From: Dipteris shenzhenensis
Lineage: Eukaryota
Assembly: GCA_047967505.1 (NCBI GenBank)
Contig: CM106538.1
Strand: one strand, 5' to 3'
Length of the DNA stretch: 64,000 bases
The notes below the pieces were generated by a model. It was not told the DNA's origin and searched no databases. It worked only from the letters and a program-made list of their open reading frames with translations. Shown piece after piece: positions 3,901 through 62,955 of this stretch (within the stretch, counting starts at the first letter, position 1; every line of letters starts with the position of its first letter). Position numbers and translations under genes: made by a program.

Positions 3901-4990
3901 TCTCTATGGTCTTAAGCAAGCGCCTAGAGAATGGTATAAGAAGTTTGATGCTTTCATTCGGTCCCAGGGTTTTAGAAGGAGTGAAATTGATCACTGCCTC
4001 TACGCTAAAAGAGCTAAGGATAATAGCCTGATAATCTTGGCACTATATGTGGATGATATGTTATTGGCTAGCAAGAATACCTATGAGCTAGATGCATCAA
4101 AGGCGAAGTTGCATGAGGCCTTTGATATGAAGGATTTGGGACTTGCAGGTCATATTCTTGGTATGCGCATCACGCGTGATCGGAGTAGGAAACTCCTTTG
4201 GCTTTCACAAAAAGAGTATATTATAAAAGTATTGCAGTGTTTCAATATGGAGGGGGGGAAGGCAATGAGTACTCCATTGCCTCCATATGTGAAACTGAGT
4301 CATACAGATAGTCCCAAATCAAATGAGGAAAGGGCCATGATGGCCAAGGTTCCTTCTGCATTAGCAGTTGGGAGTCTTATGTATGCTATGATAGCTACTA
4401 GACCAGACATTGCATTTGCAATGGGAGTTGTTAGCCGGTATATGGCTAATCCAGGAAAGAGGCATTGGGAGGCAGTTAAGTGCATCATGAGGTACATGAA
4501 GGGTACCAAGGAGATGTGCATCTGCTTTGGTAGAGGAGACGCGTGTACTTGGGTACACAGATTCAGACTATGCAGGGCATGTGGATAGTAGGAGATCCAC
4601 TTCTGGTTATGTGTTCACCTTTGCAGGTGGTGCAGTGTCATGGATGTCTCGCGCACAGAAGTGCATTGCTTTGTCTACCATAGAGGCTGAGTATGTTGTA
4701 GCCATAGAGGGTTGCAAGGAGGCTATATGGCTTGATCAACTAGTGGGAGATTTGGGGATTCATACAGGTGTACCGACATTGCATAGTGATTCCATGAGTG
4801 CTATACAGCTAGCACGGAATCCGGTCTTTCATGCAAAGACCAAACACATTGAGGTCAGGTACCATTTCATCAGGGAGGTACTTGAGGACAAGCGCATAGA
4901 GCTTGTCAAGGTTCATACATATGATAACCCTGCAGATATGCTGATGAAGAGTCTACCTAGTTAGCGGTTTGAGTATTGTTGTGTATTGAT
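939..4990 (+). mobile_element. Ty1/copia retrotransposon gag-pol, decayed (gag, zinc knuckle, protease, integrase, RT, RNase H); 3' LTR missing
   Basis: ATG at 939 gives MASSSMFEKEFFSIKKFDGTNFSLWKEQI (TAG at 1050). Motifs: CYHCGKKGHMKKDC, WILDSGAS, LWHCRLG..CEHC, HSDVCGP/DNGGEY, YKARLVAKG/MDVKTAFLHG/LYVDDML, DSDYAG/TKHIEVRYHFIRE. Copia order (IN before RT). Stops or frameshifts near 1050, 2691, 3520, 4530 and 4962. Confidence 0.96.
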
Positions 4991-5439: not shown

Positions 5440-7680
5440 CAGATGTAGAAAAGCAACCAAAGAGAATAAGAGTATTTAATGAAGATGTTATGCTAAAAGC
5501 AATGTGATCTACATGTTGCAAGCGAAGTTGTATGCATTCCATTAACTTACTTGACATCAAGGGATGTAGAGAATAGGTGTGGCATTAGAAGAGGGAGCAA
5601 AAGAAATGAATACCTACTCACGAGGCTCTCTTGCTTTCTGGTAAATGATACGAAAAAGCCAAATTTCAAACAACAGATAAAGCCTCGTATAAATGGAAAA
5701 AGTATTTGTAATAATTCATATCTCATTACTACAGGATTATCACATGGCACAAATTGGGATTTGGCAAACAAAGCAAAGTATGGAGTAAAGTTTAACATTC
5801 ATGGACACACAGGAAGGCCCAAAACAAGAGCCTCAATAGTCTCGGCAATAGCAATTTTAAAAGACTACATTCATGAAAATGCTTTACCTCAACCCCATCT
5901 ATTTGAAATGAATCATCTGATAGGTTTGACAAAAAAAGAAGTGTTTAAGTCTATTGGAGAAATACAAAGGCAAAGAGGGCATGCTCTAACATCTTTTCAC
6001 AATTTGTATACTCTTTGGAAGAAGATCTTTGTATATGTTAAAATCCCAAAAAGGCAAAAAATATCAAAGTGCAGTGATTGTGATGATCTAAAGCAAGCAC
6101 TCAAGAGTGCAACCTCTCCAGAACAAAGAGAATCATACAAAAAAAAAGAGAATTTTATCATGGACTGGTTCGGCATTCTAGACTAAAATATGCATTTTTG
6201 AAGGAGCAAGCTATTTCTCATCCAAATGAGTACATGTGCGTTATTGTAGATGGTATGGATCAGAACACAACATCATTACCTCGATTCATAAATACTCGAA
6301 CTAAGCTACAAGGAAAATACTTTTTGAAGACACATCTATGTGGAGTGTTAGTGCATGGATTTAAGTTTTTTGCAGGCATATGGATTGATTCCTTGCACCT
6401 ACATGATAGCAATCAAGTTGTAACGTCAGTTATGAAGGCAATTCACAGTGTACATGTAGAAAAAGGTCACCTACTAGCAAATTTGAGAATACAAGTAGAC
6501 AATTGCAGACGAGAGAATAAGAATGTACTCTTTTTTGCATTTTGCTCAATGCTAATCGCTGATCGAATCTTCAATGAGATTGAAGTTGGGTTTTTGTTGG
6601 TTGGACACACACATGAGGATATCGATCAGGTTTTTAGCACAATATCAAGAGAGCTAAAACACAAGGACATGGAGACGATGGATGACTTGATAAGAAAATG
6701 TGGGAGGCAAGTTGGTGGCCACAAGGAAGGTATAGTATGCTCCATGGTTAAAAGGATGTTTGATTGGAAGAGCTTTATTCTACCTTTCATACAAAAAGGT
6801 GGTGATGCCCTGCTTGGTGGTCATAGCGCTCCACACTGCTTTCATTTTTTCTTAAAGGATGAAAACCAGTGATACAGTGGCAACACTATTCTCATGATGA
6901 TATGGGAACCCGAAGAACCTTACTATCTCTTAGCTTCAATCCCGAGCAAAGAAATACATCCAATATGGGCTCCTATAAAAGAATTTAGCGAGAAATCTAA
7001 AGGTGAAATAGAAGGCTTAAAATCTTTTATTGCATACAAAGAGGAAATGCTTCGTAGATTTCCTAACTGGGAGACCTCTTGGAAGGAACACACTACTGTT
7101 ATAATTAAGAAGACCTATCAATTGATAAAGGACCTTGAGAAAATGCGAGCAGATGATGCCAAGGCAAAACGACCTTTATTTTGGCCAAATGTTGGTAACG
7201 ACTTGCACCCAACTCCCACGTCCATATTGTGGTCTAAGGAAGAGAGAGTTTATGCCGTAAGTAGACATAGACATCCACTGTTTTATTGCAGTTCATCGAC
7301 CATCGGACGATGAGCATGAGAATGTTAAGTTCTGGGTTGCAAAAGTGGTGGATGTGACCATGGATGACAAGGGAAAAGTTGCAACATTTATAGCACTATG
7401 GTATGAGCCAAGGGGTAGGAAGGAGAACCACGATAACAATACACTGTATATTAGTTTTTTGAAGAAGGAATGGGTTCCAAACCATGAGAGCTTTCCATAG
7501 AGACAGTCATAGTATATTGGAAATCAAGGACAAAGAAAACAAGAAAGCACATGGGATATGATGTAGAAGAAAAAATAAGAATACCGCTACCCATTATTTT
7601 GCACATTATAGAGTTTTTGAAGATGCTCGCTAAGGAGGAAGTAGAAGGAGATAGCACAAATGAAGAATGCCCATGACAAT
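5440..7680 (+). pseudogene. Sola-like (DUF7869-type) DDD transposase, decayed
   Basis: Consecutive ORFs give SKCSDC, VIVDGMDQ, QVDNCRRENKN and FLLVGHTHEDIDQVFS, then an FWVAKVV..LWYEP C-terminal region. Several stops and frameshifts; termini not identified. Confidence 0.75.
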
Positions 7681-10538: not shown

Positions 10539-12780
10539 ATGTTGTTTTTGATTAGATGAGTAGCTGGTATAAACCAGTAAATGTGATGATTGATGTAGAT
10601 GCACAAAATGGTAATGCTGCACAGAATTCACAGCAGCAATCACAAAATATCAGTGGACCTGTAGTGTCCTCTAGCAGTGGTTCACATACTTCGCCATGGA
10701 CAGGCAGATTGAGATCAGGAGAATCTCCTCAAAGCAATGCAGATAGTGGTATGCAGGTATCACAAAAAGGAAAAGAGAAGGTAGATCAGCCCATGTTTGA
10801 TGTGAATGCAGGTCACTCTTATGTGGATGGTGAATCCAGTGGCTCAGAACAGAGCATTGATGATGAGTTGGGTATTCCTTCTATTGTTACACCTGGAGTA
10901 AGGAAGACCATGGATGTTTTGAGAGCACCTGGAAGTGAGACTATTTTGCGCAGGTCTACCAGAGCTAGGTATCTTGTGGATAGGCTGAAATATGATGGAT
11001 TTACAGCCATTCACTATGCCTATATGGTCAAAGTGATACAGCAACCAGAACCCACTTCTTTTGAGCAAGCCATGGGAAATGAAAAATGGGAGAAAGCCAT
11101 GGATGAAGAAATGGATGCCTTGGAAGCAAATGCTACATGGGAATTGGTGCCTTTGCCTAAAGACAAGAATGCAATTGGCTGTAAGTGGGTTTATAGGATC
11201 AAGCACAATACAGAAGGTTCTGTGAACAGATACAAGGCAAGATTAGTTGTCAAGGGGTATGCACAGACATATGGCATTGATTATGAAGAAACATTGAACA
11301 GTCTGGTTGCAAGGATGGCAACTGTAAGAGCAGTCATTGCTATGGCTACATCAAAGGGATGGTCTTTACATCAGATGGATGTAAAGAATGCCTTCTTGCA
11401 TGGTGATTTGCAAGAAGAGGTCTTTATGGAGCAGCCACCATGTTATGTTCGTGCTATTCATCCTGAGTTTGTTTGCAGGTTGAAGAAAGCCTTGTATGGC
11501 TTGAAGCAAGCACCTAGAGCATGGTTTGACAAGATAGGACAGTATCTTATCACTATTGGCTTTCAGATTTCCAAGGCAGATTTCTCACTCTATGTGAGAA
11601 AAACAGAGAAAGATATTATGCTGCTTGTTATTTATGTTGATGATTTGATCATCACAGGTGATAGTGATGAAGATATCCTTCATGTGAAAATGCTATTGAA
11701 GCAGAAGTTTGAGATGAAGGATTTGGGAGAGCTGCATTATTTCTTGGGCATTGAGGTGATTAGATCACCAAGTGGGATACAGCTCTTGCAGAGGCAGTAT
11801 GGATTGGACATGCTGTCCAAATATGGGATGACAGGGTGTAAGCCTATTTCAGTTCCTTTGGAGCAGAATGTGAAGCTGAGCACAGATGCAGGTGAGCTTC
11901 TGGAAGACCCTACTATGTACAGACGCATAGTAGGAAGTTTGATTTATATGACTATTACCGAGCCAGATTTAAGCTATGCTATTGGATTGGTAAGTTAGTT
12001 TATGCAGGCTCCAAGGAAACTGCATTTGGATGCGGCTAGACACATACTCAAGTATGTGAAGTCCACATTGCAGTATGGACTATTTTATGAGGCTGGGGTT
12101 CAGATACAGTTGCATGGATACACTAATGCTGATTGGGCTGGTAGTACTTCTGATAGACGATCTACCAGTGGATATGTGTTCTCTTTTGGGAGTGTTGCAG
12201 TCACCTGGAGCAACAAGAAACAGCCTACAGTTGCCTTGTCGAGCACAGAGGCTGAGTATAGGGGTGCAGCAATGGCTGCATGTGAGGTAGCTTGGTTGCA
12301 TAAGCTACTTTATGATATGCATCAATCTATAGATGGGCCAATTGTCATTTATTGTGACAACATGAGCAGTATACACTTGGCAAATAACCCAGTCTATCAT
12401 GCTAGAACAAAGCACATTGAGGTGCATTATCACTATGTGTGGAAGAAGGTTTTACTAGGTCTTATTAATCTAGTTTATGTCAGCTCAGAGGATCGGGTAG
12501 CTGACATATTCACAAAGGCATTAGGCGCAGAGAAGCTGCATAAGTTCAGAGACCTGCTTGGTGTGCAGGAATTGGGATTGAGCTCGAGGGGGAGTGTTGA
12601 GATATCGAGCTCCACTCGTGATATGCCAGGGTGACCGTTGTGCATTTATGTCACCGACTTGTTAGCTGCAGATGCGGTTGGTACACCGCCCACGAATAAT
12701 AGCTGGACGATAGCTATCCTTATCTACTCTAGTTCGTGGCTCAGTTAATATGCCACCTTAGTTAGTTGAGTTTGGTTTGA
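10536..12780 (+). mobile_element. 5'-truncated Ty1/copia element (integrase tail, RT, RNase H, PPT, start of 3' LTR)
   Basis: DVVFD* tail, YKARLVVKGY, MDVKNAFLHG, IYVDDLI, ADWAG, TKHIEVHYH. In-frame TAG at 11996. PPT gagggggag at 12586-12594 is followed directly by TGTTG (LTR start 12595). LTR end not resolved. Confidence 0.93.
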
Positions 12781-37052: not shown

Positions 37053-37453
37053 CATTAGGGAAAAAGGGAACTCATTTTGGGGCCCTGTAAGAAATTCACT
37101 ATTTTTTGATTTATTTCTCTCCTAAAAGACCTCAAAAATAGTAAAATACGGAAACGTGGCTCAGATTTGTCAGTAAGGACTACAGAACTGTCAATTCAAA
37201 AAGGAATAAGATAATCTTTTATCTGACTAACACGATTTTGTATTAAATATCCTCTTAGATTTTTTTTTGTTTACCAAAGATTCCGCATCTCTTTGGCCGA
37301 CGTGTGCAGGTCTTTCATTAAGAGTCCATCACTGAACTTAGTGATTGCAAGTTTTCAAAATATTCACATGGATACCGCCACACTTCCACGATTCATGTTA
37401 CAAAACGACTATGAGATTGAAAAACAAACTTCGCAACCTGAGAAGCACAAAAA

Positions 37454-39594
37454 ATGGCCGATACTAGTGAGTCACTATCTGAGAAGAAGCGATTACACCA
37501 TCTTCACATCGACTTAGAAGAACAATATGCTCCAGCACAAAAAAGACGAAAGGATATGGTGCTGAATGCTCAACAGCGGGAAAATATGAGAAGAGAAGGG
37601 CTTCAACATATTGACTTATGGTGCGATGGAAGCATATATCCAAAATGTCAAGTAAAAAACTCTACACCTCCATTTGTCAATCCCACCACATTACTGAGGT
37701 TTGCCGGCGATGGACAAAATGGACTTCTTGGTTATATTTCAGCACAGTCTGCATTTGTGGAAACGTATAAAATGATGTACCTACAAGAAAAGGGGGCCAA
37801 GATGGAGGAGATAGCCATTCATGCAAAATTGGAGCAGCAGTTGCAGAATGAAATTAAGGAGCATTCAAAGAGTAAAAAAGAGTTGACAAGAGCAAGAAAG
37901 AAGAGAACCGTGCTTGGAGACAGACAACGTAGCAGGAAGATTAAAAACATTGCAAATTTGAAGGCTGGGACTGGTGGATGCAAGCGACGAATTCAGGAAG
38001 CAAGGTTAGATTGAAATTTATCATTTTGTATACTCAAAAAGGCTCTCTTCCAGACTATATCTATTTCGTTGATTGTCGCAAAATAAGAATGGAGGTGCTG
38101 AATAATATAGTCATATTGTGTTGTTACAATAGGAAATTATTGGAGCCTGCAAAAGAAAATATGGACCCGAACCTTCTTCCTGTTAAACAAATGAAAGGAT
38201 TGCTTTCTTGCGGTGTAGCAAAAGGTTTGATTGAGGAAAAAAAATACAAAACAGTCAAACGCAATGTTGTAGAGGACTTTGTATCCAATAATCAAGTTGA
38301 TGGCACTATAATCCAAGAGGCTCTTGATGTTAGTGGAGTTAGTAGGAAGGGATATAGTTCGATTTTCCATGCGATATCCTCAACTTTGAAAGATCAAAGG
38401 ATTAAACGAGTTTTACTACCAAATCCAGCAACCGTGTGGAGGATAAGAGGTCATTTGAATGAAAGTATAGATGAATTTATTGGGCAATATATCCATATTG
38501 AAGAAATATTTCATGGTGTTAAAGGAACCACTGTGTATGATCCTTGGAACAATATATTTTTAGATCTGCAACAACTTCAAAAAAGAATGGTCGAGTTTTA
38601 TGGAATAACATTTGAGGAGTGCAAAGGCATTTTGAAATTTGTTATCAAACTGGATGAGTGTGAGGTTGTAAAGGAAAAGAAAATGGAAAGAGTTACTATT
38701 ACATTGATGAATGGAGCGATTGATACATCATTGACTGAAGCGAGTTCGAAGTATTTTAGTGTGCAGTCAGAGAAACACATATGGTGGTTAGGCTCCAGGT
38801 ATGATCATGGGTTGTTTTATACTTGATTTTGGTCATTGTTTTCAAATCTGATATAGTAATACTTTTGTTTTCTATAATCTTGCAGGTGAAGACCGAAGAC
38901 CATGAAACACTAGATTGGGTGTTTCACCACACGGAAATACCAAGAATAATCAAAAGACAAGTGCAAGGCGAGAATCTCCATGTTGCAGGAAAAGGTGATT
39001 TTCAAGTAGAGTGGCACATGGCCGGGGATCTTAAAACACTTAAGTGCATGTATAACATTAGTAAAGGAGGCAACTCAAAGTCTCCTTGTCTTTACTACAA
39101 AGAATCAGCTCAAGTAATGGATTCAAAATGGTGGAAGAGAGCACCTAATAGAGATAAAGTTGACCCTGACTTCAAGGCCATTCTGGACATTCCACTATGT
39201 AATGTTCACATCTGCACATTGCATGGTCTATGTCGAATTATTGAAAAATTGGTATTTTTATATATTGGATTTGCTTGGAATCTCCGTCCCGAAAAAAATA
39301 GAAAGGATGCTCTTCAAGCATTGGAAAAAGTGTTATCCGATATAGGTCTGCATGGAGGAGATGTTCAAATCACAAAGGATTTTAAAAAGTCTACCAATGG
39401 CAAGGAGGTACCAATCAAGCCCTCTATTGGTGGTGTTAAGCAAGAAGATTCTTGTCTCGACCCAAACACAGTAAGCAAGTAAGGCAAGGTAGAGCAGTTT
39501 CAAAGATTAATTATGGATTGTGGAAGCAAGTCCATAATGCTGTGAAAGATCATGAGGCAGATGGGGAAGCACGAAATAGGAAGGCAGAGGTGTG
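37454..39594 (+). pseudogene. RAG1/Transib/Chapaev-like DDE transposase, 3 exons (37454-38004, 38133-38798, 38886-39594), 3'-truncated
   Basis: FVIKLDECEV (first Asp); SVQSEKH..VKTEDHETL (cf. RAG1 KPNSE..DESDHETL); MAGDLKTLKCMYNISKGGNSKSPCLYY (cf. RAG1 GYDEKLVR..SVYICTLC); ICTLHGLCR. Frameshifts near 38795 and 39440; abrupt switch to unrelated coding sequence at ~39594. Confidence 0.75.
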
Positions 39595-40761
39595 ACATCT
39601 GAAGCTTCTGAAAAGGAGGATGTTTCTTTGGTCACAGAAATGGCAGAGCAAGAAGAAGATATCAACCTTCAGGATGAGGGGCTGCAAGTGGCTGCTCTTG
39701 ACCTTGTTCAACTGAGGACAAAAACTCTGAGGGGAGCAGAGCCAGTTGAAGATTTTGATGTTCAGAGCAGCAACTATGCAGTGCCCATGCTTCCAGGTGT
39801 GTTGATTGGTGGAAAGGATTATGTTTTCCTCCATGATATAGAGTGTATGTTTGATTTGAGGGAGGACTATGCCATTTCCCTTATTGCCCAGGCTTCAAGG
39901 CTTGACAAGGAGGTTGGCATAGAGGATGACCATTCACTACTGGCTTTGGAAACAATGTTTGATCCTGTAGAGGCCCTTTCATTTTGTTTCAAAGAGGCTG
40001 AAAAGTTCCAAGAGCCAGATGAAGCTGCCTTCCAGCTCACACAGGAAGCAATGAATCTCTCAGCACTATACACAGAAAAGCCTAGAGAAGAGGCTGGACA
40101 AGAAGGGAGAGGGATAAATCTTTGGAAAGATGAACTGCTTGTTGCTGATGAAAATGAGAAGGTACTTCAAATCATATACTTTGACTTCTGCTTAACTTTG
40201 GTTTTGTAGGTTGTGTATTGTCTCACTCCAATCCTTTGATATGTTGCAGCTACAAATTGAGGATGACACATTCCTCCAGAGATCAAGTGGAAGCAGGCAG
40301 GTTGGGTTTCGCAAAATGTCAGGCCTAGCTCATTATATTCATGATCTAGGCAGTGCCAAGATCTTGATTTACCATAGGCAGTTGAGCAACAATGGAGAAG
40401 TGCTCTTTCATGGCAAAAGGAAAAGATCATTTTGATAGAGAGGTTGTCTGCCATAGATATATTTGGAGATTATGTGAATAAGCAGGCCTCTAGGGCCGCT
40501 TACTTTTTGTCTTACACTTCTTATGCATTAGCATGTGGTGTTAAGGACCCCAAATATCTGGAGGGCTATGGAAAACACCAGCTCGTAAGGTTTCGAGAGC
40601 CACCCATGATTGCATCAGGCCACACAGTCCAAGAAGAGGAACAGGTGGAGAGAGCTGAAGAAAAGGATAAAGAGACAGTCGACATCAAGCCAATAAAGAA
40701 GAAAAAGACTCCAATCAAGATAAAAAAGAGAGTTCCGATCGGCAGGCCCTGGGAGAAATAG
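39595..40761 (+). pseudogene. 5'-truncated cargo gene of unknown function (intron ~40162-40209)
   Basis: An acidic 205-aa open frame is followed, after a GT-AG intron, by a frame with several TGA/TAG stops running into ERLSAIDIFGDY..KKKKTPIKIKKR (NLS-like). Confidence 0.55.
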
Positions 40762-41109: not shown

Positions 41110-43000
41110 TGGTTTCTAAATATCTTCGATTCCCTCCATTGTCTATGTCTCTCTGTTGCAATTGAATTGTCTAGAGCTTGTCTTCGTCTTTGCTTTTGGG
41201 CTAGAAGAAAAGCAAGCTTGATTTTGGAGCTAGCAACTTTTCTTTTAGCATGCAACCTCTATAGTATGCCTCGGTAAAACCATTGGAAGACTTCCTTCAG
41301 ACTATTCGCCTTTTCTGACTCCCTCCATAGTGTTGTGTGTGTCTAAAAAATGCATTACGTGCCATGTAGTGAGACTTCTCCATGCCTTGGGTAGACCAAA
41401 TAGCTGGGCATCCATACTTTTTGACAAAATAGGGAAGGTGGTTGTATATGATATGCTGTAAGACATAAGAATGCATAGTAAGTAATAAAAAAAAAGAAGA
41501 TCACACTTAAGTAAAAGAAAAAGACATAACCTTACCATGTAGTGAGTTATATTGCAGGCTGTCCACGTTGAGCACTCTGCACTTTCTGGTGTGCAAAGTA
41601 CAGTTGAATTTATAGTGATCAGGCAGGCTGTCAAATCTTCTGTTCACATGGTACCTCAGCCTGTCATTGGAGACAATATGATTTAGGTGCACAAAAACCT
41701 TTTCTCCTCCCACAATTCTTCCTGCCTCTGTCAGTTCTTTGAAGGCATCCCAATAGTCTAAAAGAAAATCTTTGTGCTGCTCCAGTACAGAGCTCATTGT
41801 GAACTCCATGTTGAAAATACAGTGGTATATATGGAAGTTACTCTGAGCCTTGCATTTGTGAAGAAACTCAAATAGGAGCAAATCTGGAGAACTGTCCTCT
41901 TCTGGTTCCATTTGTTTTTTGATGGAAGAATCAGCACTCTGCTCCAGCCTCTTCTTTTTGCCTGTTCAAAAACTTATATACTATGAATTCTATATGCTGA
42001 CATATGCAATCAGTGAATGCATTGTATATCACTAGATAATTCCTTCATGACATCTCATCACTCACCTGGTGATTGCTGTGGTCTAATAATAGCAACAGAA
42101 AAGTCCAGCTTCCTCTTGAAAGGTGGGGCCTAGGAGCCAGTTGTTCCAAAACAAAAACATTTCTCATCATCAAGGAAGATTTCCACAGGGCTAAAGATAG
42201 CAAATTAATGAGGTAGAAGTGAGAAACAAATAATACACAGGAATTTGCAGCAAAATGCGATATGGGCTGTTTAGAGAATTGTAAACCACTCTCCTCGCAT
42301 TTTGTTGCAAATTCTCAAATTCTGTTCATGTGCATGTCAAATCAAGCACTTGGTTCATCTCAGTGATTCCTGGACACTATGATCTCATATGCAAGAGAAA
42401 TAATGGAATGAGTGAAACTATTCATGAGGAATGTGTCAACAACAAGAATTTGCAGCAAAATGCGATATGGGCTGTTTAGAGAACTATAAACCACTCTCCT
42501 CGCATTTTGTTGCAAATTCTCAAGTTCTGTTCATGCGCATGTCAAATCAAGCACTTGGTTCACCTCAGTGATTCCTGGACACTATGATCTCATATGCAAG
42601 AGAAATAATGGAATGAGTGAAACTTTTCATGAGCAAGGAGTCCACAACAGGAATTTGCAGCAAAATGCGATATGGGCTGTTTAGAGAATTATAAACCACT
42701 CTCCTCGCATTTTGTTGCAAATTTCTTGTTTCTATTCATATCAACCTACAATCTAATTTCTGGGTGATTTACCACATTCTTGAACAGTATTAATTGAAAA
42801 TGTAAGAAGAAGGATGGAGCTGAGTGAAGACATTGGGACATCAAAAATCCAATGGATGGAAGAAATAAATGTTGAAAAACATTGAAACCAAACTAGAATT
42901 CTGACCTTTTTTTTCCTTTTCCATGCTGATTGAGTTGCACTGGTAAATCTCCTGCTCTTTCTCTAGCTTGAACTTTGCACTCTAGGTAACCTGGAGATCT
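41110..43000 (-). pseudogene. Multi-exon cargo gene of unknown function, divergent from the H3-like gene
   Basis: Exons at about 43000-42906, 42190-42066, 41962-41533 and 41458-41110 with GT-AG boundaries; a 134-aa open core (MEPEEDSSPDLLLFEFLH...). Confidence 0.5.
42241..42725. repeat. ~205-bp tandem repeat (2.4 copies), each copy with a hairpin
   Basis: gaatttgcagcaaaatgcga...tcgcattttgttgcaaatt begins at 42241, 42446 and 42651. Confidence 0.92.
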
Positions 43001-43485: not shown

Positions 43486-44421
43486 CCTTAGTCTCTACAA
43501 TCTTCTTGCCTAAAATAGAAAAAATACATCCTGTATGGAAATGCATAGACTCAAACCAAGACAGAGAAATCACTGTAGGAATGTAGATCTTCAAGTGTGA
43601 TATTTGCATGTGATCTTCTTGCATAACCTCCATTCATACTGTATTTGGTTGGAGAAACATAGAAATCACTGTAGGAGTACACCAGCATGTCATTTAAAAA
43701 ATTTGTAGCAAAATGCGATGTGGACCTGTTTGAAATTCCAAACTGCTTATATCACATTTTATTGCAAATTTCTCTATTTGGCTTCTTCCACCCCTGTGAT
43801 TGCCTTTTCTTTGTTAGAACATGTTCTGGTTTTGTGACTTTCATAGCTATAATCTTCTTGCATAAACTCCATTCATACTGTATTTGGTTGGAGAGACAAA
43901 GAAATCACTGTAGGAGTGCACCAGCATGTCATTTCAAAAATTTGCAGCAAAATGCGATGTGGACCTGTTTGAAATTCCAAACTGCTCATATCGCATTTTA
44001 TTGCAAATTTCTCTATTTGGCTTCTTCCACCCCTGTGATTGCCTTTTCTTTGTTAGAACATGTTCTGGTTTTGTGACTTACCTTAGTCTCTGCAATCTTC
44101 TTGCCTAAAATAGAAAAAATACATCCTGTATGGAAATGCATAGGCTCAAACCAAGACACGGAAATCACTGTAGGAATGCAGATCTTCAAGTGTGATATTT
44201 GCATGTGATCTTCTTGCATAACCTCCATTCATACTGTATTTGGTTGGAGAAACATAGAAATCACTGTAGGAGTGCACCAGCATTTCATTTAAAAAATTTG
44301 CAGCAAAATGCGATGTGGACCTGTTTGAAATTCCAAACTGCTCATATCGCATTTTATTGCAAATTTCTCTATTTGGCTTCTTCCACCCCTGTGATTGCCT
44401 TTTCTTTGTTAGAACATGTTC
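43486..44421. repeat. Three tandem 230-355-bp repeats in the presumed 5'-UTR intron of the H3-like gene, each with a hairpin
   Basis: Units at ~43486-43840, ~43853-44080 and ~44082-44421. Hairpin aatttgcagcaaaatgcgat..atcgcattttattgcaaatt at ~43700, 43939 and 44295. Donor ag|gtcagt ~43465; acceptor ~44459-44467. Confidence 0.9.
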
Positions 44422-44471
44422 TTCATGTCTTTGATCTCTTTCCAATCCTTTGTATGCAGTTTTTCAGAGTG

Positions 44472-45292
44472 ATGGCAAGAACCAAGTCAACTGCAAGGCA
44501 AGTTGGCAAAGGACCAGGTCTTGCAGCAACAACAGCTGGGGCAGGTACCAAGAAGTTTAGTGTGCCTCCAAAGGGAAGAGCTTCACATGGCAGGAAGGGT
44601 AAGCCAATGAGCTTGCTCAAGCAAAAGGCCAAAAGATTGAATAAGGGTGCAGGTGTGCTAAGGGAGATAAGGAGGCAACAGAAAGCCATAGGCTTTGCAA
44701 TACCCAAAGCACCCTTTCAAAGACTGGTGAGAGAAATTTGTGACAGTTGGAACCTTGGGTTCAGGTGGAATAGAACTGCCATTCTTTCCTTGCAGGAAAT
44801 GGCAGAGGATTACCTGGAGAAATATTTTGAGGATGCAATGCTTGTAGCAGCCCATGCTCACAGGGTGACTTTGATGGCCAAAGATTTCAACACTTTGTCC
44901 AGAGTGAGATGGAGGTATGACAAGCTAGTTCATCCTGTGGAATGGCAGGACATCAAAATGAGAGATATATTGCTAATTCCACCTACAAGGAAGGTGAAGG
45001 TTGATGAGGTAAAGGTTGTTGAGGTAACACACTCAAAGAACACCAGAGGGAAGGCTGCTTATGAGGACTCACTGAAGCAGCAAATAAAAGAAACAAAATC
45101 TGTTATAGATGTGGAGACTGGAAAGAAGGAGCTACAAATACATAGAAGGTTGAAGGAGCTGGGCCCTGATGTAGTTGTACATATTGAGGATGAAGTTTCA
45201 GTCAATGATTTTGATTTGACAAAACAATGCTTAGCAGCATTGGCTAACAAGAATGAGTATTGCTCAGATACTATCATTCTTGCAATGCTCTA
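44472..45292 (+). CDS. Histone H3-like domain plus linker (exon 1 of an H3-Ulp1 fusion gene); open frame
   Basis: MARTKSTARQ...VLREIRRQQK..IPKAPFQRLVREI..RWNRTAILSLQEMAEDYL..FEDAML.AAHAHRVTLMAKDF aligns to the H3 fold without gaps (to ~44909). It continues ~125 aa to YCSDTIILAML, where the apparent TAG overlaps a TA|GTGAGT donor. Confidence 0.92.
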
Positions 45293-45383
45293 GTGAGTGT
45301 CTTTAAATTTTACATTTTTTGCAAATCAATCCTCCTTGTAACTCCTTTATAACCTACCCTAATTATGTTCTGATCCTATGCGG

Positions 45384-46572
45384 CATGATGAGAAGCTGGC
45401 TTCACCCCTCTGTACAACATACAGTCCATATTGTTGATCCAGCCATTTCTTCTAGATTAAGAGATGCAAAGGAGACTCCCATGAGTATTTCCAGCTGGTT
45501 CAAACACTGCAATTTTGAAGTAATTGACATTTTGCTACTTCCATACCATAGCAGGTATGTGGGTGACTACTTCTTTTAAGATTCTTCTTTAATATTGGGA
45601 ACTCTTGTAGCCTTTCATTTTCTTATGCTTTTTTCCTTATGCAGTGACCACTGGAGTTTTGTGTCTATTGACATCCAACAGGAGCAATGCACTTTCTATT
45701 CAACTCTCTAAAAAACACACACAGAGAGCTGAAATTGTAAGTGTTGTGTGTGCTTTTTGAACTTAAAACTTCATTATTTTGATACCATACTAACTAAATT
45801 ATACATATTGCAGTTGTATTAGAAGGCTATTAGATGCATTGGATCATTGTCCTCCAAATGTCTCTCTGTTGGATTCAATAGAGCCAATAAGTCTAGAGGT
45901 AAAAAGTCTATTAAATGCTATGTCTTTGAACTTATTGAATAATTTTGTTTTGTGCTGATGCTCACAGTTTCTAACATTTTTTTCTAACTGTACAAACACC
46001 ACAACAAAATGATTCAAGTAGCTGTGGATGGAGGGTGCTGATCAATGCAAAATATATACTTTCAAGCTACTTTGAAAAGGAACAGCCAGATCTGGTAAGG
46101 AAAAATACTTTTCATTTAGCTTGAAGATAATTCATAATGATACAAAGTGTTCTAAATTATCCTCTGCCATTGCAGATGAAAGAGGATAGCTTCAGCCCCA
46201 ACTATGTACATAATTTTAGAGCTCATACAATTTGGAGGTTTTTGAGCTATGCCTCCCCCAAACCTATTGTACCAGCTACTGTGGAGCTGGGTGAAAGCTC
46301 TAAAGTACAAGAAGGTGTCATACACCTTGATCCCACATATGAAGCACCTAATGCTGAGGACTAGAAGCCACAGGAGCAATCACAGAGTGCTGAGGAGGAG
46401 CAGACACAGGAGCAAAGACCTGCTACTGATGTTGAGGAGAAGGTGGAGAAGCAGCAAAGAGAGGCTTCTGGGGCAGTGGAGGAGACAGGATGGAGCACGG
46501 ACAGGATGGAGCAGCAGAGAGAAGATCCTCCAGAAAATGTAGAGCAGCCTCTGGATGAAACTGTACATAAAT
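45384..46572 (+). pseudogene. Ulp1/SENP (C48) cysteine-protease exons and acidic tail of the H3-Ulp1 fusion
   Basis: Phase-compatible exons 45384-45554, 45645-45736, 45814-45898, 45996-46094 and 46176-46572 give IDILLLPYHSSDHWSFVSID..Y/NSL..TPQQNDSSSCGWRVLINA..VHNFRAH. Lesions: 1-nt deletion ~45700, two decayed acceptors (45382, 45995), TAG at 46362. Confidence 0.82.
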
Positions 46573-46658
46573 AGAAAATGGATGTTAGAAATATGTTCTA
46601 CAGATTCAGCTAAACAATTCTGTACAAAATCTTACTTGATTGAATACAAAACCTTTCT

Positions 46659-48097
46659 TTATGGAGTCTGTGTTATCTCAATTTTAAAATTTTCTATGTC
46701 TTTGCATTTAACTGAGCTCTCTCTTCTTCTGAGTAACTGCGAAAAAGCAATATGAATTAGAGTGGTAAATTAAACTAATAGCAATGCTTAATGAGACTAG
46801 GATAAATCAGATGGTGTACCTTTCTGTTCTTGTAGATAAATAAAAAGTCGTTTGAGATAGAACCTTCAGTCTCAAACAGAATGTCACTGCGCAATTGAGC
46901 TAGGGAGCAACATTCTCTTAACGAGATATTGGCTACCACATCACCATTCTCAACAACATCAATATCAATAAGTTTATTTTCTGCACCAAAAGACTCTTCA
47001 TCTTGATCCATTGGGACAAGCTTTGTGCCTAGCATTCGACTGCGCTTGTAATAAAAAGAGAAAATAAAATTTTGTGATGCAACCATGTACTTCAGTTGCA
47101 TAGAAGGTTGGACCACCTCACAAAACACTGAACTACATGTCTTCTTATCCCAACCTTTATCCAAAAATTGTGGCATGCATGCCGAATTTGTTGCTTTAGC
47201 TGTGAACATTGTTTTTGAAACCTTTACTGGAAAGGTATTAAACAAGTCTACAAAAACTGTGAGAGGCATGCACAAAGAAATTTTTACTATCCTAGTGGCA
47301 ATATTGGGCCTCAGAGCTTTCTGTACTTCTGTAAAAAGCTTTGCCCTATATGCCTCTGTAACACTAGAATGTGGGTGAGGCCAATCCACCGAATTCCATG
47401 CCGGAAGGTCTTGTTTTATTAATACACCATGTGTGTTAGCTTTGTCCAGAAACTGATAAAAATGATCAGTAAAAAATATACCCGATTGAGCTAGCTCTGT
47501 TGCACATCGACCTTGGTATTGTTGTTCTCCTATCGATCCATGCAGAACATCTATAAATCCCAGAATACAATCGATGTTTTGCCATGTCTCATACGATGAA
47601 GGATATAAATCTGAAATAAAACAACACAAGAATGTCAATAAGTTAAGAGAGAAAGCTTCATCTTAAAAATCCATACACCTCATGAAGAAAAAAACCACAA
47701 TAGAAAAATATACAATTAGGCCTGTGTTGCGGAAGATTTTTTGGATAGTCTCACAAGACAAGTTCTTTATGCATGTACACGTGCTGAATCAAAACTTCTT
47801 TCACGGATATCTTCCCTTTGGTGATTTTAAAATCTCGTACTCTTCCCTTCCACGATGCCAAGAAAATGTTTTTTGTCTGGGGTCTTTTTCTTTTGCTAGG
47901 TTGCATGAGCACCCATGCTCCTTTCGAAACACTAAACCTTTCCCAAGTTCCTTCTGTTTTGACTGTACTTGAATTCTCTACCGACGAAATGAAGAAGCAG
48001 GTCGACGGGGTAAGGATGTTTGGTATAATTCTGCCTTCGTAGCATTATCATCCACAGAGCGTCTTCCACAAGAACGACCGTGGTTTTGGTTCACCAT
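46659..48097 (-). pseudogene. Probable BAH-domain protein with C-terminal ubiquitin-like domain (exons ~48097-47714, 47610-46820, 46736-46659)
   Basis: Spliced translation FSVSKGAWVLMQPS..WKGRVRDF..VLIQHVYMHKEL..RPNYLYPSSYETWQNIDCILGFIDVLH..GIFFTDHFY follows the BAH pattern. The C-terminus SLAQLRSDI..FLFIYKNRKLLRRRES looks beta-grasp-like. One in-frame TGA (~47751) and a 5' frameshift. Confidence 0.55.
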
Positions 48098-48599
48098 GGA
48101 GATTTTCTGAATCTGTAACAATAGCAAAGTAATGTAACTAAGATAACAATTTGAAGTTTCAAGAAAGAGAAAGTGGGCAAACAGACAGTTGACGAGAAAC
48201 ATCTTACTCTACGCCAAACAGGATCAAGGGAGCAGTTTTGGAAAAGAAAGGCTGTTGCACAATGAGGCAATGGTGTAGAATGGTAGACCTTTCGCACGAA
48301 AGGCGGCACAACATTTGAAAATTCAAAGGAAGGTGGAAGCGGGAAGGATCTTGTCAGATAAAATGTCAGTTTAGATTCTATCTTCTTGTCCAAAGATCTT
48401 CTAAGAATAAAAAACCAATCTCCTCATTAATGTAGCACGCTTGTACTTACATAAAGTATTGTTTCTTTTTTCTATTTTCGTGAATTTTCAACGTTACGTT
48501 GGCCTTCTATTGATTGGTTGAGAGCTTATTTTTCCAAACCGTAAAAGGCCCCAAAATGAGCTCCCTTTTTTCCTAATGCATTGGATGGTCACCACAAGG

Positions 48600-51541: not shown

Positions 51542-54158
51542 TGTTGGTAAGCTAAAAGGAAAGGAAAGAGTGGACACAAACTCAGAATTCTTGCATTACT
51601 TGCATTATGGAATGAAGAAGAGTGAGGTCCTTAAGTAGGCACCTCATACATGCTCACTGACATCACTGATGACTTCAGAGCTCCACAATCATCTCCTCAA
51701 TCTGCTCCTAGATTCTCTCAATCATCCTATGTGGCTCTCCACCACCTAACTGTGCTTGTGGGCACCTAACTGTGCCTCTAGCACTCACACATAGAAACCA
51801 AGGTGTGCCTGAGGCATACACCTTGAGATATCCCATCAAACCCCCCCTCAAGGGAATGCCTCAGGCTATGTCAAGGATACATCTAGTCTCATAGTTTCTC
51901 ATGCCATCTCATGGTGGTCAAGGATGAATCTATGGCTAGGTTCTCATGCTAGCAAGGGTTCCCATGGGTGTAAGGTAAACAAAAGGGATACAAAAAGACC
52001 TTCCAATGGTTATCTCCCCTGCATGTACATGCACACAATGTCTGCACATGGAGCAAAACATACACATGGCCTACATCATAAGGTGACCAGAGGTGTTTAC
52101 AAAACACACAAAACACAATAGTTTATTTCATTCATTTTGGAGGACTATCCAGGCTGAGTACCTTGACATAAAAAGAGAGATCTGGAGCATACATAGAGAT
52201 GTTTTAAAATGCATAATCTTCAAAGGATGCCTCATCTTGTGGAGGCTCATCAACTGAAAGTAGATTTGCATTTTCTGTCTTTGCTTTGGCTCTGCAAAAC
52301 TTCTCATTATGGTTGTTCTTGCCACAGTGCTTGCATGGATTAATTTTGAAGCAATCCTTTGAAAGGTGATTTGTCTTTCCACAGTGATTGCAAGGAGTAT
52401 ACTTGCCCTTCTTAAATTTTTACAGCATAAACAGTGTCATTGCCTTTCCTGAGCTCCATATGCCTTTCTTCTTCTTGGAGAGCAGAGATAATACCTTCAA
52501 GATTAGGATTAGGAAGATTTTTCAAAGTGGTAACTATGTGATCATAATCTTCAGGCATACTCTTAAGTAACACTGCCATAGCATCATCTGGAGTAATAAG
52601 AGAGTTGATAGAAGCTAATTGAGTCATAAGACTCCGCATATAGTTGACATGAGCTGCTAAAGTAGTACCACTAGCCATCTTCAATTCAAAGAAAGAGATT
52701 TTAAGTGATAGTTTAGAGATGTGAGAGCTAGCACCAAAAATCATGTCAAGCTTCTGCCAAGCTTCTGAAGGAGACTCCAAGTCAGAGATATGGTGAATAT
52801 AATCATCTCCTAAAGCAAGAGCAATGATTACATATGCATTTTCTTCTCTAGCTGGATCCCTTGCCGGTCGTGTCGGAGTTGAGGATTCTCCAGCATTGGA
52901 GGCCGTAGAAGAAGCGGTAGGAGTCAGTTTGACAAGTCCCCATAAGTTCTCCCTCATCAATGCAAATTTCACCTTCATCTGCCATGTGCGGAAGCCCTTT
53001 CCATTGAACTTCTCTAGATTCAATAGGGTAGCCATGAGAGGGTCTAACCCAGATATTGGGCAGTGTCTTTCTCTCTTACAAGGCAAAAAATAACTGAAAA
53101 ACTTCCAAAATATGAGCACTTGATGTAGCAAAGACTAGTGACCAATATTCAATCAATGATGCTTCTTCTTACATGCTTCATAGAAGTGGCTAAAATGAAT
53201 AACCAGGTCTAGCAATTCAAAACAAAACTGAAGCCACACTTGTACTGAAGTTATTGAAAGATTCAAAAAACCAGAAATGCTAGAGTAGCATTTTATGTAG
53301 CATCATCTTCAAAAACTTGTCCAAAACTATCAAAACTAAAAGGCTGAACTTGGAGGGCTTGTAGCTCACTCTTCAAAGCAAAGGAAAAGGGGGTTTTTAA
53401 GGCAAAAGAGAGCTGTTATACCACAAAAGATCCTCTGGGAAGAAGAGGCGCAAAAAGGCATCAGAACTCCATAGCTTGCCTTTCCAACGTCGACTGGTTT
53501 TTCTCTGTTTTCAGCTTGAATAAGCAACCATTGTTGCTCAGATTTCAGCACAGGATAGCCCAAGGCATGGAGAATCTACCCCTGAAAGGAATTAGAGGAA
53601 GATAAGGTGTGCTGAGAGAAAACGCAGAAGGAAGAATCGACGAAAATCGTGTAATGGCGACGAAACGGGCGCGGTTTTCTTTGATTCCTCTCAGCCAGAG
53701 GTTCACCCCTTCAAGGTGGATCTCCAGCAGGAAGGACGTGGGAAATGGCTGAGAACCGGAGAGCTTAAGCAAACTTTGGGAAGAAGAGGGAGAGATGGTG
53801 AAGAAGAAGATGATGATGTGGCAAAAATGGGCTCAAGGGGGATCAAAGGGCTCTGATACCATGTTGGTAAGCTGAAAGGAAAGGAAAGAGTGGACACAAA
53901 CTCAGAATTCTTGCATTACTTGCATTATGGAATAAAGAAGAGTGAGGTCCTTAAGTAGGCACCTCATACATGCTCACTGACATCACTGATGACTTCAGAG
54001 CTCCACAATCATCTCCTCAATCTGCTCCTAGATTCTCTCAATCATCCTATGTGGCTCTCCACCACCTAACTATGCTTGTGGTCACCTAACTGTGCCTCTT
54101 GCACTCACACATAGAAACCAAGGTGTGCCTGAGGCATACACCTTGAGATATCCCATCA
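51542..54158 (-). mobile_element. Structurally complete gag-only copia-type LTR element
   Basis: 297-bp TG..CA LTRs at 51542-51838 and 53862-54158 (5 substitutions by eye). TSD GAATG at 51537-51541 and 54159-54163. PBS TGGTATCAGAGC at 53850-53861; PPT at 51839-51850. No pol. Confidence 0.96.
52204..53035 (-). pseudogene. Copia-type gag with two zinc knuckles (frameshift ~52415)
   Basis: MATLLNLEKFNGKGFRTWQMKV..LLKSMPEDYDHIVTTL, then CNHCGKTNHLSKDC and CKHCGKNNHNEKFC; stop at 52204-52206. Confidence 0.9.
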
Positions 54159-55484
54159 GAATGCACATAGTCGCACGTGGATGGAACGCGATATGAAGGA
54201 AAAATGTGCAATGGTCACTAAGATCTGTATATCCTATTGTTGGATCAGCACCAAACTTTGCAAGGGTCTTAAAACAAGTTATTTTAATGTCCTTGCAAAG
54301 TTTGAGGTGCATTGGATGCCAAATGTGACATCGTGGAGCAAGAATGCCCATATTTGCATGTGGATGCTATGTATATGAAGGAAACATGCGCAATGGACAT
54401 CGACATCCATATACCACCCTGTCGTACTAGCACCAAACTTTTGAAGGGTCTTAAAACAAGTTGTCTTAATTTCCTTGGAAAGTGTAAGGTGCATCGGATG
54501 CCAGATGTGACACAGAGGAACAAGAATGCTCATATTTGCATGTGGATGCTATGTATGTGAAGGAAAAATGCACAATGGACATCCACATCCATATATCCCA
54601 CCAGCGGATCAGCACCAAACGTTGCAAGGGTCTTAAGAAAATTAGTCTTAATGTCCTTGCAAAGTATCAGGTGGATCGGATGCTGTCTGTGCCACTGGGG
54701 AACAAGAATGCACATAGTCGCACATGGATGCTACGCGATATGAAGGAAAAATGTGCAATGGACACTGACATCCATATATCCCACCGTCGGATTAGCACCA
54801 AACTTTGCAAGGGTCTTAAAACAAGTAGTTGTAATGCAAAACCACCGGTTTACATCATATTCCAAACCATACAAAATCTGCAACCTTCATACAAAATTTT
54901 AACCAAAAGTTTCAAGCTATGTGTATGCCGTTTTTGGATTTGGTGACTAACAACAGATAATCTGGCATGCGAGTGCTGCTACTTTGATTTTGTGCTCCTT
55001 GCCATAGTCCATATTAACTACCCTTGAAAGGGGCTCTACAAGGTGATGTTGATGGCATCCTTGTGGTGGTAAGTATCAAGGTTTGTTTGTGGAAATGAGA
55101 TTTGAGCTTCAACTTCCATTTGGTATTTGGTGGAGTTTTCCTTTCAACCTCGATCAACCAAAGCTTATCAACCTTGGTCGCTAAGAGCCTTTGCACCTTG
55201 CCCAAGTATCTTGCAAAAGTTCAAGGATTTGGATCTACTCACTTGCTATCTAATGGAAGTCCCGCTACATTGTTTTGATCTAGCGGGTATATTGTTGGCT
55301 AGAGGCATATTGTGGGATCATTTGACAAGTTCATGTATGGGTTCAATGTCCATTTGATAAGTCCCTTGCATACACCAAACAAAAGGTTTGTATGATGGTA
55401 TGCCTTCCACACACCAAAATAGACCCTTTCATAGTCCCTTCAAGTTGGATCATGTAAGTCTAATGGTATGACTTCCACACACCA

Positions 55485-61117: not shown

Positions 61118-62955
61118 TTATGCGCGTGGTTGTGTTGTCGACTGTGAGAACTCTCGTGGAATTGGTCTGAATATGTCTGGATGTGGGCAATGTAGTATGC
61201 GCAGCCTCGTTCTCTCAGTCACTCTGGACAACATCACGTATGCCATGCCAGGGGCAAACACTCCTCGGAATATGAGCAGCGCTTTGTTGGATATGGTTGC
61301 GCCTTGGGATTTGTGTCCCGTGATAGCGTATGCTAGGGTTAGTGGAAATGTGGACTTGTGGAACCATTTTCCATTTATTGCCTTTCCCTGATGCTTCGAG
61401 CGTCGTAATGTGAGCACGGCCGCCGTTGTGTCCATGACGACAGTGATACCGTTGATTTCCCCCCTGCTAGTTGCATTGATGCTCTTGATTTTGCACATTG
61501 CTCCATTTGCGGCACCTATGGCGAGGTCAATGTTTTCCGTTATCATTGCCTTCGCCCCCACGCAAATTTTTCCTATCTCGTTGAAGCTTTTGTCCTCCAA
61601 CCATTCTTTGAGAGCTGGTTCGCTCGCGGCGTTACTGTGTATTTGAACATGCACAATCATCTCGGGAGTGTTGAATTTCTCCACAAGCTCATCGTTGAAG
61701 GTAGCGACATCGACTCTGTGCGTGCAAATGATGGTTGTTTCGGCATCGATGAAGTGGCATGCACCTTCCTTGTCGACAATGCACTGCCCCAAACAGTCGA
61801 AAATCTCGTCAGTTGTGGGCGTCCTGAGTCTTATGGTATGCAAGAATGCCAGGAACGGCATGTCTCATGCATGTCGCATCGAGAATTGCATGTGGTACAT
61901 TTTCGCTTGAACCCAGTGCACGGAGGACGTGATGTGGCATGGCTCGCAGAGATCCTCGCGATGTTTGCAGACTGGCGGTAATTGCGCGAGGTCACCAAAA
62001 ATTATGAGCATTTTGTGTCTAAATGGCTCATGCAATGTGCCATTAGTCACATTGACGATTTGTCTTACCACGAGATCGAAAGTCATCCTTGTTAGCATGG
62101 ACATCTCGTCAATGATGATCACGTTGGCTTCCTTGATTGCGAGGTGTCGCTCATCCGTTTCATGGATGTTCAGTGGGTACTGACTGCTGCGCACAGGGAT
62201 CTTGAATTGGTAGTGTACAGTGGTTGCAATCCCGCTCAGCTGCGTCGCAACCGCCCCTGTTGATGCACAGAGTATTGTTGTTTTGTTTTGCGCTACCAGA
62301 TGCGAAACATAGTACCGTATCAAGAAGCTTTTGCCGCTACCTGGTGTTCCACAGACAACGTGCAGCCCCGAGCTTGTTGAAGCTAGGCTTTCGAAGACTC
62401 TTTGTTGTTCTACTGTCAATGCGGCATTGGCGAGCGACGGTGCGAAACTCGGCCATTTTTTCCAACATCCTCGCGCGTGTTGGCCCTTCGACGGTTTGCT
62501 GGTCGATGTTAGGCGCTTCCATCGGGCAGTCTCGGATGATTCAAGACCAACCGTTCCACGTTGCGTTTCCTTGGGCTTTCGTATCACATATTGCCTATGG
62601 AATCGTAGAACGTGCTCTCCTCGATGACGCTCGGTCTCCCGCAGTATATGTCGACCGGGTGCAGGGTGACGTTGTTGTTTCGCGAGACGATGCGTTGTCT
62701 TAGAGATGGTGGCGAGGAGTCGACATAGTGAACGGTCTCGCTCCTTGTGATTGTTGGTATCTGCATGCAGTTTAGCGCGGCCTCTGTTGGAGAGGTTGGT
62801 TTTGATAGGAGGCTCGCGGCGATGAGTTTCAGCTTTACTTCGCCGAGATGTTGCAACCCCAAACGCGAGGCGTCTTCTGAACGGATGTTCAGTTTGCCCA
62901 TTGGTTCAGATTTCATCGCGTACTTGAGGAGGTAGTGAGAGATTGAAGAGTTTGT
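61118..62955 (-). pseudogene. Helitron-type Rep C-terminus and PIF1 helicase, lightly decayed
   Basis: HYLLKYAMKSEP, SPTEAAL, GTPGSGKS, IIDEMSM, GDLAQLPPV, GAANGA, FPLTLAYAITGHKSQGAT, YVMLSRV. TGA at 61865; frameshifts near 62440 and 62585. Confidence 0.9.

Follow-up and report, generated by a model that had tools for sequence, protein, structure and literature searches.

A probable transposon-associated gene family joining an H3-type histone fold to a Ulp1-like peptidase, with a decaying copy in Dipteris shenzhenensis

A histone H3-like gene, H3L, has been described in a hAT transposon of the fungus Pyrenophora tritici-repentis (PMC3538342), and in plants the KIU (Kaonashi) genes of VANDAL Mutator-like elements encode anti-silencing proteins of the VANC type that have captured an Ulp1 domain (PMC13317346). 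Elements that carry KIU induce hypomethylation of related elements, while the role of the Ulp1 part is given as unknown (PMC13317346). Transposon fusions with Chromo, PHD, SET and SNF2 have been surveyed across eukaryotes (bioRxiv 10.1101/2021.11.30.470311), and the tails of the plant centromeric histone CENH3 keep conserved blocks at both ends, shared with canonical H3, around a hyper-variable middle (Maheshwari et al., PMC4314295). Here, we report a gene in a 64,000-nucleotide stretch of Dipteris shenzhenensis DNA (GenBank assembly GCA_047967505.1, contig CM106538.1; the whole stretch is called the window below, and coordinates are those of the window unless another contig is named) in which these known kinds of object, i.e., chromatin genes captured by transposons, Ulp1 domains of transposons and H3 variants, are combined. 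The gene belongs to a family whose architecture runs from a short tail derived from H3 through an H3-type fold and a conserved linker, which contains a long helix, to an Ulp1/C48-like peptidase. We place at roughly 0.6 the probability that this is a transposon-associated H3-variant/SUMO-protease gene, a function that we infer.

The ATG at 44472 starts a 273-codon open reading frame (ORF; 44472-45293, + strand, stop codon at 45291-45293) whose N-terminus, MARTKSTARQVGKGPGLAATTAGAGTKKFSVPPKGRASHGRKGKPMSLLKQKAKRLNKGAGVLREIRR, begins MARTKSTARQV; the start of the H3-like protein reads MARTKSTARQVGKGPGLA. Pfam Histone (PF00125) matches ORF residues 45-141 with an E value of 4.7e-27 and 95.1 bits (cut-off 26.4), and because this match is far above the cut-off, the ORF is not a product of chance. 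It encodes a real H3-type histone variant. Canonical H3.1/H3.3 has an invariant tail with K9-S10, A-R-K27-S28 and K36, and ends about five residues after helix 3. Judged by these marks, the window protein is not a canonical H3: in H3 numbering (A1 = 1) its tail has K4, Q9 and V10, it contains no ARKS, a motif that occurs twice in each of the canonical-type H3 proteins P0202 and P0204, and more than 120 residues follow the histone fold. There are 61 tail residues before the LREIR helix, vs 47 in P0202 and P0204, a difference of 14. A preliminary description of 44472-44650, which corresponds to ORF residues 1-60, had noted the tail ARTKSTARQV with K4 kept, K9 changed to Q and S10 to V, the lack of a second ARKS motif, and a tail about 14 residues longer than usual, and these observations are all confirmed in the ORF. 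Its term histone variant is borne out as well, for a multi-copy H3-type variant that sits beside a transposase between inverted repeats; the resistance to silencing that it attached to this variant is another matter and is weighed below together with the tails of the family.

A protein collection search returned 173 relatives of the window protein, the best of which are not ordinary histones. What these best relatives share is an extension after helix 3 (RWRYDKLLHP..F.D.KMRDILLIPP.R...I.EVTH..TR), followed by a helical stretch and by a segment ending ...SDTI.Y..L. A hidden Markov model (HMM) of the extension picks 65 of the 288 fetched proteins (E <= 1e-3). The named members are all Adiantum hypothetical proteins, i.e., 12 A. 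nelumboides gene models (P0013, P0019, P0021, P0122, P0123, P0166, P0286, P0287, P0199, P0150, P0185, and P0148) and one from A. capillus-veneris (P0124). Several of the A. nelumboides models are truncated or chimeric, P0286 for example being joined to a retroelement part, and the subclades are deep. In a 55-row tree (quick search, 91 columns), the folds of 34 family members group in a single clade (SH-aLRT 99). Identity of the fold is 50-53% to H3-type proteins, 47-58% to CENH3, and about 40-50% between subclades of the family itself. The DNA-contact residues of the fold and the H113/D123 pair of the H3-H3' interface are nevertheless widely kept among the 34 members: R69 in 34, R72 in 33, R83 in 28 (with K in four more), R116 in 33, T118 in 33, H113 in 31, and D123 in 33; the window copy has all of them. 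The AlphaFold model of P0166 contains a confident histone fold, a long helix (residues 176-222) and the start of the peptidase, with low confidence beyond residue 280, and its Foldseek matches, 257 at E <= 1e-3 with a target TM of 0.66-0.78, are to H3 chains of nucleosomes. When exon 1 of the window gene is compared with related contigs, the 24 listed differences divide into 8 synonymous and 0 non-synonymous in the fold, 5 and 5 in the tail, and 2 and 4 in the extension; the 24 are the best-supported differences only, with 58 more beyond them, and the 8:0 count is possibly biased. As it stands, the count suggests that the fold is under purifying selection.

The longer family members run on from the extension into an Ulp1-type peptidase. 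P0166, which is one continuous gene model of 403 residues, matches Pfam Peptidase_C48 with an E value of 1.3e-5 and 25.6 bits (cut-off 20.7), P0124 gives 0.013 and 15.8 bits, which is below the cut-off, and the best Protein Data Bank (PDB) match of P0185 is 6dg4_A, an Ulp1-like SUMO protease (E 0.12), in which the His-Trp and Gln...Cys motifs are aligned. The separate peptidase exon ORFs of the window have no Pfam match. In the window the stop codon of the histone ORF sits within a GTGAGT donor, and the first downstream AG that keeps the frame is at 45394-45395; the putative exons are given in Table 1. The continuation of the third exon, with an Asn-Ser motif, is found in a different frame from that of His-Trp, and related contigs of the public runs X1 and X3 are without 2 bases at 45690. 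Because the His-Trp frame runs into a stop and these contigs lack the 2 bases, the window copy is frame-shifted relative to its relatives, the frame breaking between the His and the Asp position of the peptidase. Further downstream, the segment 45990-46094 (VQTPQQNDSSSCGW) carries the Gln...Cys motif, and no canonical acceptor joining it in frame was found in the window; the missing acceptor may be a second lesion. The window copy is decaying: its peptidase can no longer be read in one frame, and the transposase next to it is fragmented and partly inverted.

An intact counterpart comes from metagenome contigs, where a scan with the extension alignment gave a single locus, a contig (L001) with a P0006-like histone/Ulp1 gene. 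Neither a scan of metagenome contigs with the window's extension alone nor a scan of viral contigs returned a relative. On L001 the position and phase of the donor after exon 1 are as in the window, the exon with HW...NS is intact, and the Ulp1-like domain, with Asn at the Asp position, lies at 1900-2150 of that contig. Two NIF (CTD-phosphatase-like) ORFs follow downstream (3281-3754 and 3830-4399, + strand; Pfam E 1.9e-12 and 2.7e-14). Please note that positions 1-693 (- strand) of L001 encode a bacterial CdaA diadenylate cyclase; because the first 700 bases are of this kind, the contig may be chimeric.

The setting of the histone gene in the window resembles that of a mobile element. Upstream of it lies a transposase-like gene in at least four pieces, and a C-terminal fragment on the opposite strand represents either a rearranged element or a second partial copy (Table 1). 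Both are recognized through P0131, a protein of 783 residues whose AlphaFold model, built with 15 relatives, has a mean pLDDT of 61 and 70-90 in the core. At E <= 1e-3 Foldseek gave 44 matches of this model, and each of them is to RAG1, RAG-like or HzTransib, the structures spanning RAG1, amphioxus RAG-like and Helicoverpa Transib; the best is 6b40_A (1.4e-6), and the next fold has an E value of 0.22. A protein atlas also gave RAG1-type leads for ORF 38805-39479. Pfam has no match for the window transposase ORFs or for P0131, P0141, and P0138, and a transposase profile against PDB sequences gave chance-level matches only. The spacing from the invariant D of the transposase family to its C-x2-C presumably resembles that of RAG1. 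A CACTA-type superfamily is possible for this transposase, because the structure search returned no solved CACTA-type transposase. The transposase pieces, two tandem-repeat blocks, the histone/peptidase gene, and a 295-codon minus-strand ORF are all enclosed by a pair of inverted repeats with ends that read CATTAGGGAAAAAGGG. The 30-nt core of these repeats is present at exactly two places of the window, the one inverted relative to the other, against 0 expected by chance. Because of this arrangement, and because the family is multi-copy and often broken, the histone gene is rather probably cargo of a DNA transposon that is bounded by the inverted repeats at 37053 and 48578 and has a transposase of RAG1/Transib-like fold.

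Several observations weigh against the reading of a transposon-associated histone/peptidase gene, and we set them out together. Measured against the His-Asp-Cys triad of C48 peptidases, His-Trp and Gln...Cys are present and the Asp is replaced by Asn, in all three intact examples seen; because Asn stands in the place of the catalytic Asp in P0166, P0185, and L001, the protease activity of the family is uncertain. No RNA run turned up for 44300-46700, and the splicing of the histone part to the peptidase part was assigned by eye from GT-AG sites, together with homology. L001 is without a transposase within 3.2 kb downstream of its gene, so that the window is the one place in which histone gene and transposase are seen linked, and the window in its turn has no NIF ORF. 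At the inverted repeats no target-site duplication was found, the flanks sharing no direct repeat of 2-5 bases beyond palindrome letters. Transib elements are defined by a 5-bp target-site duplication and a CAC-type heptamer at their ends; the ends in the window have neither the heptamer nor the 5-bp duplication and are not Transib-like. As to the protein, four family members (P0165, P0180, P0178, and P0206) have unrelated N-termini, and the K4 seen in 38 of the 38 tails compared below is circular, since the pattern by which the tails were selected demanded it. The possible bias of the count of fold differences belongs here too.

The alternative that survives these points best is a host family of H3-variant/Ulp1 genes, expanded in ferns and with a cellular role, for example chromatin-bound deSUMOylation, in which case the transposase would be one of many unrelated repeats in a repeat-rich region. 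Such a family would fit the apparent purifying selection on the fold, the gene structure conserved between the window and L001, the lack of a transposase over those 3.2 kb of L001, and a window that is full of unrelated elements; it does not sit well with the 12 or more gene models of a single Adiantum species, which fall into deep subclades and are in several cases truncated or chimeric, nor with the enclosure of gene and transposase in one inverted-repeat pair that occurs only twice in 64 kb, nor with the decay of both window genes, which is what a dead element would look like. We regard a host family as rather unlikely, and a transposon-associated gene as the better account.

For the comparison of tails we took the family proteins with the start M-[APTS]-R-x-K, which gave 38 tails; the 27 family proteins outside this sample are mostly truncated gene calls, with starts that lie within the fold or shortly ahead of it. 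The length of the tail before the helix ranges from 27 to 67 residues. A-R-T at positions 1-3 is present in 30 of the 38 tails, T6 in 32, and R8 in 31. At position 9, K stands in 17 tails, R in 14, V in 3, Q in 2, and W and D in one each, the two carriers of Q9 being the window copy and P0123. Position 10 is just as mixed (E 10, L 5, V 4, S 4, D 3, A 3, I 3, Q 2, T 2, and K 2). We considered whether the acidic residues at position 10 (13/38) could mimic phosphorylated S10, and dropped the idea, the position being too variable to argue from. ARKS occurs in none of the 38 tails. Close to the fold, a basic box of the RKGKP type is found in 18 of the 38, and in 8 of them, the window included, its K lies exactly 21 residues before the L48-equivalent, which is the spacing of K27 to L48 in canonical H3; MAFFT pairs the RK of the box with R26-K27. 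The layout of the tail is thus a constrained start ARTK.T.R (residues 1-8), a variable middle, and a constrained RKGKP box before helix N.

The preliminary description had gone further and proposed that the tail is shaped to escape silencing, with K9 changed to the acetyl-mimic Q and K27 removed, such that nucleosomes or a soluble decoy could not be marked by H3K9me2 or H3K27me. Part of this is sound. The contexts K9-S10 and ARKS-27 are indeed absent family-wide (ARKS 0/38, S10 4/38), K is found at position 9 in only 17 of 38 tails while R, in 14 of 38, is likewise not methylatable as a lysine, and the gene lies in a transposon-like setting. A K9Q state designed to be non-methylatable or to mimic acetylation is, however, contradicted by the same comparison, in which other copies have K9 and position 9 varies freely over six residue types, Q being present in no more than 2 of 38. 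The DNA closest to the window is instructive here. A contig of run X1 differs by 6 of 179 bases over 44464-44642, and one of the differences, C to A at 44499, changes the Q to K. The sole other close contig in which the Q9 codon keeps its C, from run X2, is 2 bases short at 44539 within the tail-coding part (depth 2.7) and may be another dead copy or an assembly error, and the window copy is itself broken. In the tree, the neighbours of the window protein are P0159, P0004 (R9), P0010, P0005, and P0006 (all K9), and the ancestral state of position 9 in this subclade was probably K. Because of the tail counts, the K9 of X1, and these K9/R9 neighbours, we read Q9 as a recent and private change: on the sequences compared, Q9 and V10 are private to the close lineage of the window copy, and the change to Q9 occurred recently, in decaying copies. 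The statement that K27 is gone holds for the motif, but the box, whose RK persists at the K27-equivalent spacing in part of the family, may still supply a lysine at the corresponding position. Moreover, the tail pattern alone is no argument for silencing resistance, because plant CENH3 shows the same pattern as a normal state. An escape tail is improbable on this evidence, and nothing in the data indicates the loss of K9 as a working principle of the family.

Still less probable is a functionless captured H3/CENH3 fragment, transduplicated and drifting, whose tail changes would be decay. The broken peptidase frame and the variable tail residues are what one would see in such a fragment, and most captured genes in plant transposons decay (PMC13317346); against this, contact and dimer residues are kept in 28-34 of the 34 members at about 40-50% identity between subclades, the listed fold differences are all synonymous, and both the extension and the intron position are conserved. 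As to the ancestry of the fold, the three clades could not be rooted in the tree, and the diagnostic residues point both ways, since P63 (26/34), W84 (34/34), and D98 (33/34) are in the CENH3 state, K64, Q68, and R131 are in the H3 state, and the spacing from R72 to position 84 is 11 residues in 28 of 34 family members and 5 of 6 H3-type proteins vs 12-13 in 15 of 15 CENH3. A paralogue of the host's centromeric histone is very improbable. The tail architecture and P63, W84, and D98 are common to the family and angiosperm CENH3, but in 28 of 34 members loop 1 is as long as in canonical H3, where 15 of 15 CENH3 are longer by 1-2 residues, K64, Q68, and R131 are in the H3 state, and the family is multi-copy, peptidase-fused, and a clade of its own.

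What a transposon-associated gene of this kind might do can be put only in conditional terms. The histone fold would pair with H4 and enter nucleosomes, or bind histone chaperones, and would thereby bring the peptidase to chromatin. If SUMO were removed there from silencing factors bound to chromatin, the element would benefit. The ARTK start, being conserved, could serve as a handle for the normal readers or importers of the H3 N-terminus. Nucleosomes accept C-terminal tags on H3 as well as the C-terminal tail of CENP-A, and the C-terminal extension of the family may be accepted likewise. Such a chromatin-targeted anti-silencing role of the family is a possibility that we hold tentatively. 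A more specific version, which we consider doubtful, is a fern RAG1/Transib-like transposon that brings its own CENH3-like nucleosomal histone, the C-terminal SUMO protease of which would clear SUMO locally from the silencing machinery. The histone would then sit in nucleosomes, possibly those of the element itself, with the fold as the address and an action like that of VANC-Ulp1; the ARTK start would be needed for import, deposition, or reader binding, and K9 would be dispensable.

The object is unusual in that a core-histone fold is joined to an Ulp1-type peptidase, in many diverged fern copies, and should the protein become part of chromatin, it would represent a histone that is encoded by a transposon and brings an enzyme along. 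Neither a histone-Ulp1 fusion nor a transposon-borne fern histone was found in searches of the main texts of open-access papers and bioRxiv preprints, and the word histone does not occur in the review of gene capture in plants (PMC13317346). RAG1/Transib-like transposases may also be little known in plant-like genomes; in one survey preprint, only 35 transposases were recovered for the RAG1/Transib superfamily. If true, the reading offered here would give a handle on the support that SUMO lends to the silencing of plant transposons and on the long-unexplained Ulp1 domains that these transposons carry. The family further offers a natural test of which segments of the H3 tail cannot be dispensed with, residues 1-8 and the basic box being kept and the K9-K36 region free. 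The failure of K9Q as a silencing escape is itself informative.

The features of the gene and of the putative element are collected in Table 1.

Table 1. Positions of the histone/peptidase gene, its parts, and the enclosing putative element in the window
Feature	Position	Strand	Remark
Left arm, 37-nt inverted repeat, candidate terminal inverted repeat	37053-37089	+	33/37 complementary
Transposase-like gene, at least four pieces in three frames	37484-39592	+	matches P0131 residues 5-657
C-terminal transposase fragment, opposite strand	41300-41965	-	P0131 residues 694-781 map to 41571-41313(-)
Tandem/direct repeats, 239-356 nt spacing, immediately upstream of start codon	43486-44380
Putative exon 1, histone part and linker	44472-45292	+	ends in phase 2 at GTGAGT donor; position and phase as in L001
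N-terminal tail, residues 1-62 including Met	44472-44657	+	MARTKSTARQV start; 14 residues longer than canonical H3
Codon CAA (Q), H3 position 9	44499-44501	+	AAA (K) in X1 contig; C kept in X2 contig
R-K-G-K-P box	44592-44606	+	first K 21 residues before L48-equivalent; kind present in 18/38 family tails
H3-type histone fold, residues 63-152	44658-44927	+	DNA-contact arginines and H113/D123 pair conserved in family; 8/8 listed differences synonymous
Family-specific extension after helix 3, RWRYDKL.HP...D.KMRDILLIPP.R...V.EVTH..TR	44898-45056	+	source of family marker HMM
Putative exon 2, WLHPSVQHTVHIVD...LLLPYHS	45396-45554	+	aligns with start of Ulp1-like part of P0124, P0166, P0185, P0199
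Putative exon 3, His-Trp motif	45645-45737	+	HW frame from 45646 hits a stop after 21 codons
Gln...Cys active-site segment of Ulp1-like peptidases, VQTPQQNDSSSCGWRVLINAKYIL	45990-46094	+
Acidic low-complexity C-terminal region	46131-46575	+	in-frame stop 46362-46364; weak alignment with Adiantum acidic tails
Right arm, 37-nt inverted repeat	48542-48578	-

Other observations concern the surroundings. Between the transposase pieces and the histone gene there are repeat blocks at 42237-42851, in units of 205 nt, and at 43486-44380, with a spacing of 239-356 nt, and the two blocks share a motif of 37-53 nt in inverted orientation. ORFs of 209 and 127 codons occupy 39580-40758 (+ strand), where the similarity to the transposase ends; they have no Pfam match, and the place may be a rearrangement breakpoint. 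The 295-codon ORF inside the inverted repeats (46778-47662, - strand) has no Pfam match and no usable protein atlas match. Outside the inverted repeats, direct repeats of 297 nt that are 98% identical (51542-51838 and 53862-54158) stand around a Copia-type gag ORF (52415-53134, - strand), and 51542-54158 looks like a short gag-only LTR (long terminal repeat) element; it is followed at 54158-54836 by 3.7 tandem copies of a 182-nt unit (79% matches). Further elements of the window are Copia gag/integrase/RVT_2 pieces (1053-4588), a DUF7869 ORF (6087-6872), a second RVT_2 piece (10556-12634), and a PIF1-type helicase ORF (61868-62905, - strand), which is of the kind carried by Helitrons.

When the family is placed beside the known systems, each of them shares some features with it or with its neighbouring transposase. 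CENH3 has in common with the family an MARTK start followed by divergence, a variable tail length, and constraint at both ends, to judge from published work (PMC4314295) and from the angiosperm CENH3 sequences compared here, 14 of 15 of which start with MARTK and then diverge; the fold residues P63, W84, and D98 are shared as well. Unlike CENH3, the family has no longer loop 1, is represented by 12 gene models in one Adiantum species, bears a C-terminal extension with an Ulp1-like domain, and forms a separate clade. The relation to Transib/RAG1 concerns the neighbouring transposase, whose predicted fold matches only RAG1, RAG-like, and HzTransib structures; it differs in being without a Pfam or PDB sequence match and in ends without a CAC-type heptamer or a 5-bp duplication. 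The chromatin fusions surveyed across eukaryotes resemble the family in that mobile elements co-opt the chromatin machinery; those described in the part of the survey at hand are readers, writers, and remodellers, with no core histone-protease fusion among them (bioRxiv 10.1101/2021.11.30.470311). H3L resembles the window gene in its setting: it is an H3-type gene enclosed by the terminal inverted repeats of a DNA transposon, as the window gene is by candidate ones, and it has been amplified with its element (PMC3538342). It is fungal, however, belongs to a hAT element, and exists as 26 near-identical copies with no protease fusion mentioned in the portion of the report at hand, whereas the family described here is plant-like, has a neighbouring transposase of RAG1/Transib-like fold, is split into deeply diverged subfamilies, and carries the Ulp1-like fusion. 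KIU resembles the family in its protein, being a plant transposon gene that joins a chromatin- or DNA-targeting part to an Ulp1-type peptidase (PMC13317346), as our family does; in place of VANC the family has a histone fold, in place of a Mutator-like transposase a RAG1-like one, and it is fern-related and not eudicot, so that only the Ulp1-like part is shared between the two.

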